From UHGV virus genome UHGV-0254280: a stretch of DNA of 8,607 bases; one strand, given 5' to 3'. Below the pieces are notes generated by a model. That model did not search any database, was not told the DNA's origin, and saw nothing but the letters and a program-made list of their open reading frames with translations. Each line of letters opens with the position of its first letter. Positions within the stretch are counted from its first letter, which is position 1. This document shows, piece after piece, positions 4,570 to 6,570 of this stretch. The DNA is from a virus. The position numbers and the translations under genes are program-made.

Positions 4570-6570
4570 TCAGGGACAGTTATTGTCACAAGTCCAAGGG
4601 TCGGCTTCGCCGCCCCCACCCGCCGCGCGGGAGCGCGTCGTGCGGTGTCGTGAAGCCGACGAAATAAACACAGATTCATAGCTGCTGCCGCTTCTGACTT
4701 CCTCTGCGCGGATTTTTTCTGCGGGGGTCATACGGCGGACAACACAGCCCATAAAACGGGTTATGACCGGAACGGGGCCAAACATGAAACCGGAAATCAC
4801 CGGTGCGCAGGGTTCACCGTAACGGTTAAAACGGGGTTTACCACCTTCCTGCGGCTGAACGTAAAACGGACGAAGCAGACGTTCAGAACAGAAGAAACCG
4901 CCGTTCAGCAGGATATAGGTCCGGAAATCGCCTGCATCACAGGCCATGCGGATGGCTTCCAGTTCGGCGACCTGCTGCGGCGTGAACTGCTGCATATTGA
5001 TATGATGCGCCTCAAGCGGTGCGCGGAAGCTGCGCATCTGGCGGTAAGCCGTAACGGAGGGAACGCCAAAGAACTGGAACAGGCGAAGGCGCGTTGCTTT
5101 CTGCCAGCAGGCGGCACGGCTGACGGCATCACAGAATGAACGGGCAGAATAACGGTCATTCAGGGCGGTAATACCATCCGCACTGACATCACCCGCCATT
5201 TTGGTGATGTACTTCACGATGTAACGGAAACCATCACCCTTTTCAGGGTCAATAGCCTCAATACGAATGCGGTGCTCTTTCGCCCCCTTTTCATCCGGCT
5301 CATCGCGCATGGCCTCTTCACGGAAAATAGCGAGCACCGTTGCGCTCTCATGGGGATTGCAGTAAATCAGGAAATTCCAGTGCGCTGTACCGTCAGCATG
5401 CGGCTCGACCGTGCGCAGACCGGGTATCTGAATACCGGCTTTATCCAGCCTGCGGCAGACACGACGCCAGACGGTATTCAGCCATGCGTGCGAATTCTTA
5501 ACGGTCGGGCAACCTGCTTCCCACCATTTTTTATTCGGACGAGAATGCCATTTTCCGGCAACCTTAAAACTGGTCGTCGGGTGAAAACGTGACGGCGTGG
5601 TGAGCACGATGAAGTAACCGGACAGCCCCATATCTTCGGACAGTTCACAGACGGCCTTTCCACGAACGCAGAGTTCAGCAATCCGGTTTTTCGGATTCGA
5701 AACAGAGGCGTTATGCGCATCTTCCAGCGTACAGATCAGCTCATTAAACGCATCAAAGACACCGGAGGACCGGAGATACTTTTTCACGCGTTTACTGCGG
5801 ACAGCAAACAGGTCACGATGCCAGTCAGAAATATAAGGCGCGTTGCGGTTCAGTATGCCGAGCATGCGACAGACCTCATTGACCCGCTGGTCACGGATAA
5901 CCCGCAGGAAACGGGTGACAAAAGCCAAATCAGTCAGACGCTTAAGCAATCCCTCATCGCCGTAACGCTCATGATAAGTGGCATAAACGGGGGCGAAATC
6001 AAAGCCGGAGATGGCCTGAAAATAGGCCATCACATTGAGAAGGTGATGCTCTGGTACATCACTATAAATGGCCCGAGAAACAAGGCAGTCACGAACAACC
6101 GAATCAGCCACCTCAGCAATCTGCTCATCAGTGCAGAAAAGCGAGAATTCATAAGGGTCTCCGTCCTGATTGAAGAAAGCAAAACGGTGAGCGGACTCAA
6201 GGGCCATCAGCGCATTTTTCACACCAAGCTGGTAAACCAGACGGCAGAACGCATGCGCCACGGTGAACGAAAACGAGCCAAACTGTGAAACCAGTCCGGC
6301 AGCCTTACCCCTGTCAGCGAGAGATAAATCCGTGCAGTTAATTCCGTAAATCACACGGTCAACCTGCGTGTTACGTGGCAATGCGAGCTGTGAAGATAAG
6401 GTCCCGACCTCATCACGATACTGGCGGGAAAGCGTGGCAAGGTTGCGGGTGGCAACATCGCGCTCAGTCCGAAAATGCTCGCGTTCGGGCAGCGTCAGGC
6501 AGGGACGACCAAGGGCAACGGATGCCGCGTCGATGGCGTTATACGCTGTAAGGATGGCTGATTCAGTCAC
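4570..6570 (-). CDS. Rolling-circle replication initiator, gpA-like HUH endonuclease
   Basis: 666 aa. GTG start at 6570 preceded by GGAGGGGGG. Three motifs in the expected order: YFIVLTTPS (motif 1-like), [12 protein letters not shown] (putative HUH region), and YIVKYITK (two-tyrosine motif Y..KY..K as in the phiX174/P2 gpA family). Occupies the gII position. Confidence 0.8.

Follow-up and report, generated by a model that had tools for sequence, protein, structure and literature searches.

A Phage_GPA-type replication initiator and its predicted origin in a dif-integrating filamentous prophage of Escherichia coli

Superfamily-I rolling-circle initiators, such as the A proteins of bacteriophages P2 and phiX174, nick their DNA, become linked to the 5′ end through a tyrosine, and use a second tyrosine to close the displaced strand. 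Among filamentous phages, the Vibrio phage fs2 (genus Saetivirus) encodes a 716-amino acid (aa) Rep of the Pfam Phage_GPA family, followed by genes V, VII/IX, VIII, III, VI, I, and IV, and its filamentous relatives VFJ, Vaf1, and Dolos also carry a large (~700 aa) Phage_GPA-type Rep as their first gene. The pairing of a GPA-type Rep with the assembly proteins pI and pIV has thus been known since fs2. The same architecture is described here for the virus genome UHGV-0254280, a stretch of 8,607 nucleotides (nt; referred to as the window) that corresponds approximately to one complete filamentous-phage genome and in which every core gene of the open reading frame (ORF) list lies on the minus strand. 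The analysis concerns its rep gene (gene II equivalent; positions 4570–6570, minus strand), encoding a 666-aa Phage_GPA rolling-circle initiator, and a conserved DNA element at the 3′ end of rep that is probably the (+)-strand origin. The window is a dif-integrating E. coli prophage and belongs to a common but undescribed enterobacterial lineage.

The initiator and its catalytic motifs

The assignment of rep was supported by the ORF list, by Pfam and PHROG profiles, and by RefSeq, where RefSeq/PGAP annotation of E. coli chromosomes contains the same 2001-nt coding sequence, labeled 'replication endonuclease'. The GTG is the first start codon past the upstream in-frame stop, in the context ...TTGGAGGGGGGTGC-GTG. 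Direct reading of the sequence identified a G-rich Shine-Dalgarno element (GGAGGGGGG; 6574–6582, minus strand), in which GGAGG (6578–6582) is located 7 nt from the GTG. Coordinates, length, and GGAGG all agree with the original prediction, made from these letters alone, of a 666-aa, GTG-started ORF behind a G-rich Shine-Dalgarno. The start is placed close to 6570 because this is the first in-frame start, homologs begin there, conservation is evident from approximately residue 20, and the chain is modeled with confidence from residue 2 onward. A search of rep for internal in-frame starts, from which a pX- or A*-like product might be made, found none that is both conserved and preceded by a Shine-Dalgarno sequence; M236 is the sole internal start with a good one (GAGGT, 7 nt) and is not conserved in the enterobacterial inovirus clade described below, and M458 is invariant in that clade but lacks a Shine-Dalgarno.

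Profile searches placed Rep in the gpA family typified by phiX174 and P2, as had been proposed. Pfam Phage_GPA (PF05840) matched aa 206–457 with 165.3 bits (E 2.4e-48; gathering cut-off 31.4), and PHROG 91, 'nicking at origin of replication', matched with an E value of 9e-128. The Reps of fs2 and of a metagenomic inovirus (L020) were also assigned to Phage_GPA by profile search. NCBIfam contained no matching model for Rep or for three other products of the window (the gene V-position ORF, the 76-aa ORF, and pI). The gene position would suit a diverged member of the Ff pII (Phage_CRI/G2P) family, and a weak match was obtained to PF23343 (REP_ORF2-G2P), at 18 bits against a cut-off of 27.8; that model is also matched by P2 A and fs2 Rep. 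Rep had no match to the Phage_CRI (PF05144) or G2P_X_C (PF05155) profiles, whereas the same profiles gave 257 and 97 bits, respectively, with IKe pII (244–257 bits for Phage_CRI across IKe pII and the UPphi-type Rep). Likewise, tblastn against f1 and IKe pII detected no similarity, the best fragments being 10–13 aa long at E values of 0.5–1.5. The profile searches refute membership of the pII family, to which we assign a negligible probability, and the expectation that Rep would show no resemblance to Ff pII is borne out.

Catalytic motifs were examined in an alignment of 45 homologs, retrieved from a search of 5.8 billion proteins and extending down to 23% identity. Motif 1 (VLTTPSRFH, aa 322–330; 5581–5607, minus strand, as are the other two) contains T324, P326, S327, and H330, which are invariant in all 45 sequences. 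The same holds for E389, P390, H391, D393, and H397 in motif 2, the metal-binding, HUH-type block (aa 389–401; 5368–5406), and for Y450, Y454, and K457 in motif 3 (YIVKYITK, aa 450–457; 5200–5223). Every one of these residues is also present in fs2 Rep and P2 A. The two-tyrosine motif recognized by eye is therefore genuine in the sense that neither tyrosine varies among the homologs. The accompanying proposal of candidate HUH and motif-1 blocks holds for motif 1 and for the H391/H397 block; a literal 'HUH' is not found, and the window reads H397-W398-N399 instead. Position 399 is Asn in 26/26 enterobacterial inovirus sequences and His in the other 19/19. The block as a whole follows the pattern EPH(A/K/V/R/N)DGxxHWN in all 26 enterobacterial inovirus Reps and EPH(H/A)DGxxH(W/H)H in the 19 other GPA proteins. 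Of the four histidines in the canonical metal-binding block, two have thus been lost from the enterobacterial inovirus clade, namely the second HUH histidine and His392 of EPHHDG, and its HWN variant constitutes a natural experiment on the HUH metal site.

An AlphaFold2 model of Rep, built on the 45-sequence alignment, had a mean predicted local distance difference test score (pLDDT) of 88.9 and a predicted template modeling score (pTM) of 0.85. It comprises an all-helical N-terminal domain (aa 1–268) and an alpha/beta core. The part of the helical region outside the Pfam match (aa 1–205; 5956–6570, minus strand) is formed by helices with pLDDT >89 and contains residues, F97 and G98 among them, that are invariant within the clade. 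In the core, motif 1 is found at strand 317–323, and Y450 and Y454 are both on helix 448–459. The C-terminal tail (aa 630–666) is predicted to be disordered (pLDDT <50), and its codons (4570–4680, minus strand) overlap the origin sequence. A sequence search of the PDB with Rep returned nothing at E values up to 1. In Foldseek searches, the nuclease domains of adeno-associated virus Rep and parvovirus NS1 recurred at a probability of ~0.8, but with E >0.1. The model supports an HUH-nuclease fold for Rep with moderate confidence. Considered jointly with the origin and the mechanism set out in the next section, Rep is very likely the replication initiator of the prophage, a two-tyrosine rolling-circle nuclease of the HUH superfamily, in the Phage_GPA family and in that branch of it which accompanies inoviruses such as fs2.

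A predicted (+)-strand origin at the 3′ end of rep

The last codons of rep (4599–4576) are CCT TGG ACT TGT GAC AAT AAC TGT, encoding P W T C D N N C. They coincide with a predicted nick sequence of 22–24 nt, CCTTGGACTTGTGACAATAACTGT (4576–4599, minus strand), in which the nick is predicted at or next to G4595 (approximately CCTTG↓G, the arrow marking the nick). The P2 origin, GCG CCT CGG AGT CCT GTC AAT AAC TGT GG, is nicked inside gene A, with the nick annotated at nt 29892 of NC_001895; 19/26 positions are identical between it and the window motif, and the two fall in the same columns of the protein alignment. The 22-mer is unique in the window and was contained in 0/200 shuffles.

The motif was then compared across relatives (locus handles in brackets). 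No mismatches in the 22-mer were found in an E. coli prophage (L019; Rep 58% identical), where it is in frame inside rep, or in Salmonella (L005; Rep 46%), where it is in another frame and runs across the stop codon (...A L D L stop). A single mismatch is present in three Xenorhabdus loci (L006, L008, and L009; Rep 41%), where the motif lies 191–195 nt past the stop codon, and in Providencia (L021; Rep 41%), 183 nt past it. Xenorhabdus L010 (Rep 42%) has one mismatch and a 6-nt GACTCG duplication, with the motif 191 nt past the stop. Three mismatches were found in the metagenomic inovirus L020 (Rep 28%; 14 nt past the stop) and in fs2 (Rep 29%), where the motif is inside rep in the third frame (LGLVSLT); the window, by comparison, reads it as PWTCDNN. 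The fs2 variant, CATTAAC, was missed by a plain search for CAATAAC and recovered by a mismatch-tolerant one. When the window, Salmonella, and Xenorhabdus sequences were aligned, the motif was the only run of invariant columns in DNA that is otherwise unalignable. Without exception, it is viral-strand (gene-sense) DNA, lies between rep and the gene V-position ORF, and has an inverted repeat immediately 5′ of it. The predicted nick consensus, essentially common to P2-type myoviruses and GPA-type inoviruses, is CCTYGGAnTnnTGnCAATAAC behind a hairpin.

In the window, the inverted repeat is a GC-rich hairpin directly 5′ of the nick sequence (4598–4616, minus strand), with a DNA folding z of -3.1. 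P2, fs2, L005, L006, and L020 each have a hairpin at the equivalent place, with a sequence that differs between lineages: the P2 inverted repeat is GCGGCATCGCCGC, and the fs2 and Xenorhabdus hairpins are long and near-perfect or perfect. The hairpin and motif at the junction of rep and gene V are a probable (+)-strand origin, because the DNA is conserved whatever its frame, the peptide it encodes in the window is disordered, and the sequence matches the annotated P2 nick site. The block might instead specify a functional C-terminal peptide (PWTxxNNC), or serve the downstream gene as a signal for transcription or translation, given that P2-like, PM2, and E. coli inovirus Reps share the frame (P-W/R-x-x-x-N-N-C) and that the block is 20–60 nt upstream of the next gene. 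Such a role is hard to reconcile with its occurrence in two other frames (Salmonella and fs2) and at 14–195 nt past the stop in Xenorhabdus, Providencia, and L020. A peptide predicted to be disordered, a P2 record that annotates the nick within the matching sequence, and the lack of resemblance between the block and either a promoter or a Shine-Dalgarno sequence also argue for an origin, and we regard the peptide or signal explanation as quite improbable.

Two related sites were also noted. In Xenorhabdus szentirmaii L010 (11217–11244), the internal 6-nt duplication (CCTTGGACTCGGACTCGTGAC) generates a pair of candidate nick sites that overlap. Near the 3′ end of gene XII of phage PM2 (L012 1879–1902), there is a P2-like block, CCTTGGAGCACTGAAAATAACTGT, in frame and encoding PWSTENNC. 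It is far from the annotated PM2 cleavage site (L012 625/626), which has CTTG↓ and CAATAA in common with the nick sites of phiX174 and P2.

In the proposed mechanism, Rep would recognize the hairpin and CCTTG↓GACTTGTGACAATAAC on the viral strand, within the last codons of its own gene. It would nick there via one tyrosine (Y450 or Y454) and stay attached to the 5′ phosphate, using a metal site predicted to comprise H391 and H397, with Asn399 in place of the canonical second HUH histidine. The 3′-OH would be extended by the host replisome and, after one round, the second tyrosine would cut the regenerated site so that the displaced single strand could be circularized. The protein encoded at the downstream gene V position would presumably coat that strand for assembly through pI/pIV. 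This scheme follows by analogy with P2 A and phiX174 A, and the family, motif conservation, fold, and conserved cis element with its position are those described above for the window. Several points weigh against it. With Asn at the second HUH position and no His at position 392, metal coordination may differ. The P2 nick position used for comparison is a GenBank feature, and nicking by Rep, the exact nick position, the division of labor between the tyrosines, and action in cis are all projected from comparison with known initiators. That the motif and hairpin would suffice for replication is likewise a prediction from sequence.

The result provides a concrete predicted origin (hairpin plus the nick sequence) for this group and for fs2-type vibriophages, which would open the way to phagemids or replication reporters and to testing cross-talk with P2-like prophages. 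A more speculative extension combines two proposals: that the enterobacterial clade may run its nicking chemistry with a reduced metal site (HWN), changing metal preference or tightening cis dependence, and that P2-type and GPA-inovirus initiators might nick each other's origins. We consider the pair unlikely. If true, a resident P2-like A protein could activate, mobilize, or interfere with a filamentous prophage in the same E. coli cell, or the reverse.

Ancestry of the replication module

The original prediction viewed the genome as a mosaic, in which Ff-like morphogenesis genes had acquired a replacement replication module. Two of its elements stand: Rep is a GPA-family protein unrelated to Ff pII, and pI and pIV are recognizably homologous to the f1 proteins, pI with 31% identity over 251 aa (E 1e-32) and pIV with 26% identity over 282 aa (E 5e-19). 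The replacement of a module in an Ff-like phage lacks support in the form proposed, in view of the fs2 precedent, the grouping of inovirus Reps, and the co-divergence of rep with the other genes. The window pI is 30.7% identical to that of f1, 33.2% to IKe, and 32.5% to fs2. The pIV protein shares 26% identity with f1 and IKe and 44% with its nearest match in the phage database, a human-saliva inovirus whose Rep is annotated 'replication initiation factor'. The backbone is not specifically Ff-like, because pI is as close to fs2 as to f1/IKe and pIV is only 26% identical to f1. In a Salmonella diarizonae relative with the same gene order, identities were 46% for Rep, 38% for gene V, 32% for gene VIII, 39% for gene I, and 44% for gene IV; Xenorhabdus relatives gave ~41% for Rep, 38–42% for gene V, and 44% for gene IV. 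This similar divergence in the same order indicates that the backbone, including rep, is old and was inherited together.

A neighbor-joining tree of Reps was calculated from 488 well-aligned columns. The enterobacterial inovirus Reps clustered in one clade (bootstrap support 100%). The inovirus Reps as a group (the enterobacterial clade, fs2, and three metagenomic sequences, one of them confirmed on an inovirus contig) were split from P2-like Reps with 83% bootstrap support. The phylogeny thus places this Rep with those of other inoviruses and not with those of P2 prophages. It bears directly on the possibility of a recent mosaic, in which an Ff-like coliphage lost a pII-type gene and captured gpA from a resident P2-like prophage. 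Potential donors are available, since E. coli contains many P2-like GpA genes with 30–33% identity to Rep over 57–69% of the protein. Initiator modules are also exchangeable: the UPphi-type prophage has a Phage_CRI Rep, a satellite has Rep_trans, the phage with the nearest pIV has a 'replication initiation factor' Rep, and a module split has been reported for UPphi (PMC7307601). Apart from the tree, however, the alignment of Rep with its fs2 and VFJ counterparts begins at its residue 43, closer to the N-terminus than for any of the tailed-phage and PM2 Reps listed, which start to align between aa 99 and 211. In addition, Rep, gene V, gene I, and gene IV co-diverge in Salmonella, pI is no closer to Ff than to fs2, and the segment that has recombined among close relatives is pIII–pVI rather than rep. 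We judge a recent capture very improbable.

The recombinant segment was evident from a comparison of the window (1776–3487) with a related prophage in E. coli strain E300010 (L013 5617–7214). Rep is 98.8% and pI 97% identical between the two, yet pVI is 32.5% identical and pIII is conserved only in its N-terminal half. The replaced pVI and C-terminal half of pIII indicate that the adsorption module is a recent recombination hotspot among close E. coli relatives.

The ends of the window fall inside a tandem array of a 339-nt unit; it was thus within repeated DNA that the contig was broken or closed, as might occur in a chimeric assembly of a P2-like prophage fragment and an inovirus. Such an artifact is refuted by five complete E. 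coli chromosomes that contain ≥80% of the window at 94.6–97.6% identity in the same gene order, one of them with tandem copies. The order is also the same in Salmonella, Providencia, and a metagenomic contig, and the probability of an artifact is practically nil.

Exchange of replication modules among inoviruses is real and already known as a general property. Inovirus genomes are modular (Roux et al. 2019), UPphi901/YpfPhi is a published case of replication-module exchange between enterobacterial inoviruses (PMC7307601), and genes II and V are all that UPphi has in common with YpfPhi (PMC7307601). Elements at the E. coli dif site carry Phage_CRI, Rep_trans, or Phage_GPA initiators, bringing the unrelated initiator families used by dif-site inoviruses of enterobacteria to at least three. 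The phage in the window belongs to an established type of inovirus, with a GPA-type Rep as in fs2, and not a fresh Ff chimera; it represents a third enterobacterial dif-inovirus lineage.

Genome organization and comparison with known systems

The viral-sense gene order is rep, a 141-aa gene V-position ORF, two small ORFs, a pVIII-like gene, pIII, pVI, pI/Zot, the repeats, pIV, an attP-like region, and a divergent 76-aa ORF. Matches to Zot, Secretin, and Phage_Coat_A and to PHROGs for pI, pIV, pVI, pVIII, and pIII, in the order seen in fs2 and Ff, are those of the Inoviridae. The gene V-position ORF (4114–4539, minus strand, as are the genes that follow) encodes a candidate single-stranded DNA-binding protein; it matched phrog_30648 (E 1e-95), its match to Pfam G5P was only faint (E 0.08), and it directly follows rep and the origin motif in all relatives. 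The pVIII-like coat gene (3539–3799), pIII (2135–3487), and pVI (1776–2135) precede gene I (557–1759), which encodes the pI/Zot assembly ATPase (Pfam Zot; phrog_1675), and gene IV (7247–8455), which encodes the secretin (Pfam Secretin; phrog_1012, E 3.5e-114). The Gly/Ser-rich linker of pIII (2630–2880) is encoded by 39-nt and 30-nt tandem repeats, and the same region is reported to be variable in copy number in UPphi and IKe pIII.

The divergent 76-aa ORF (6667–6897, plus strand; phrog_5219, E 2e-22) is, from its position, a candidate repressor of rep transcription. The AT-rich gap between it and rep (6571–6666) contains TTGACA-17-TATAAA and repeated TTAGAAnCTAAGAA / TTAGATTCTAAGATTC half-palindromes as candidate operators. 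The TTGACA-17-TATAAA site comes from reading the letters and was not listed by a consensus promoter scan, its second hexamer ending in A. The layout resembles, in position, the repressor-operator arrangement of integrating inoviruses. An attP-like region lies at 7098–7195 (minus strand). It consists of two inverted dif-like sites flanking a perfect 14-bp hairpin (7125–7138 / 7150–7163); one site has the sequence AGTGCGCATAATG...TTATGTTGAAA, which the second repeats imperfectly in inverse orientation. The pair resembles the folded single-strand attP of CTXphi, and a relative abuts chromosomal dif. An Rfam search of the window returned no family.

Megablast of the window against 50,697 phage records gave no match, and the phage is known only from prophage and metagenome sequence. 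The GPA-type lineage is nonetheless common: the window was matched in 106/5426 complete E. coli genomes (megablast), and a single 90%-identity protein cluster comprises 2063 sequences. E. coli strain 100416 carries a 97.6%-identical prophage in tandem copies beside a chromosomal dif site with one mismatch (L001 2481–2508), and the related prophage of strain E300010 is next to hipA. Between that GPA-type prophage and hipA lies a short element (L013 11687–13852) with a Rep_trans initiator and small ORFs and without morphogenesis genes, resembling the RS1 satellite of CTXphi.

The 339-nt repeat unit has a GC content of ~58% and is present in ~2.3 copies (~700 nt) between genes I and IV (window 1–543 and 8494–8607), with small plus-strand ORFs. 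Other filamentous prophages of E. coli (L018) have it too; the close relative L013 lacks it, with a gap of ~120 nt between genes I and IV. It was considered as a dispersed miniature inverted-repeat transposable element, occurring in up to 30 places in one genome; this is unlikely, as the single multi-copy locus inspected (L018) proved to be a further filamentous prophage in which the repeat likewise separates genes I and IV. A traX (F-pilin acetylase) gene occupies the interval between genes I and IV in related E. coli inovirus prophages (L018 3463–4224; L019 15386–16183) and is unusual cargo for a phage that may use conjugative pili.

With UPphi901, YpfPhi, and CUS-1 (PMC7307601, PMC4266046), the window shares XerCD/dif integration, tandem prophages by hipA and dif, and a conserved core surrounded by accessory ORFs. 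Identity with UPphi was rejected: a UPphi-type E. coli prophage with IKe genes has a 350-aa Phage_CRI and G2P_X_C Rep, and its pI and pIV are only 31% and 28% identical to those of the window. Identity with YpfPhi/CUS-1 was considered as well, and YpfPhi was set apart, by published description only, through the statement that its gene II is >85% identical to the UPphi gene (PMC7307601). Neither the genome scan nor the members listed for each Rep cluster (15 at most) included a Yersinia sequence.

Ff (f1/M13/fd) and IKe have the same gene order, II-V-VII-IX-VIII-III-VI-I-IV, with identities of 31–33% in pI, 26% in pIV, and 35–37% in the N-terminal domain of pIII. They differ in their non-homologous Phage_CRI initiator and in their origin, which is intergenic and upstream of gene II; unlike the window, they lack a dif-type attP, a repressor-like divergent ORF, and the 339-nt repeats.

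In comparisons with the fs2 group, Rep is 29–33% identical to the Reps of fs2, VFJ, Vaf1, Shewanella phage Dolos, and Vibrio cyclitrophicus inoviruses, and pI is 32–35% identical to those of fs2, VFJ, and Vaf1. Against fs2 itself, only Rep (29%) and pI (32%) showed detectable similarity, with none in pIV, pIII, pVI, or pVIII; at this level of sequence identity, the phage falls outside the fs2 genus Saetivirus. The fs2 group also differs in its hosts, which are Vibrio and Shewanella rather than Enterobacterales, and fs2 has HNH in place of HWN and the origin motif in another frame.

P2 A, with which 186, HP1 Rep, PM2 P12, and phiX174 A are grouped as related systems, belongs to the same Pfam family as Rep and shares its TxPSRFH, EPHxDGxxHW, and YxxKYxxK motifs. 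Its catalytic tyrosines, Y450 and Y454, have the same numbering as those of Rep by coincidence. P2 differs in being a tailed double-stranded DNA phage, and its 761-aa A protein has another N-terminus, a long C-terminal extension, and HWH at the metal site. Collectively, these comparisons do not overturn current understanding, and what is worth keeping is the HWN variant and the predicted origin shared with P2, whose nick is likewise inside the 3′ part of the initiator gene, behind a short GC hairpin.

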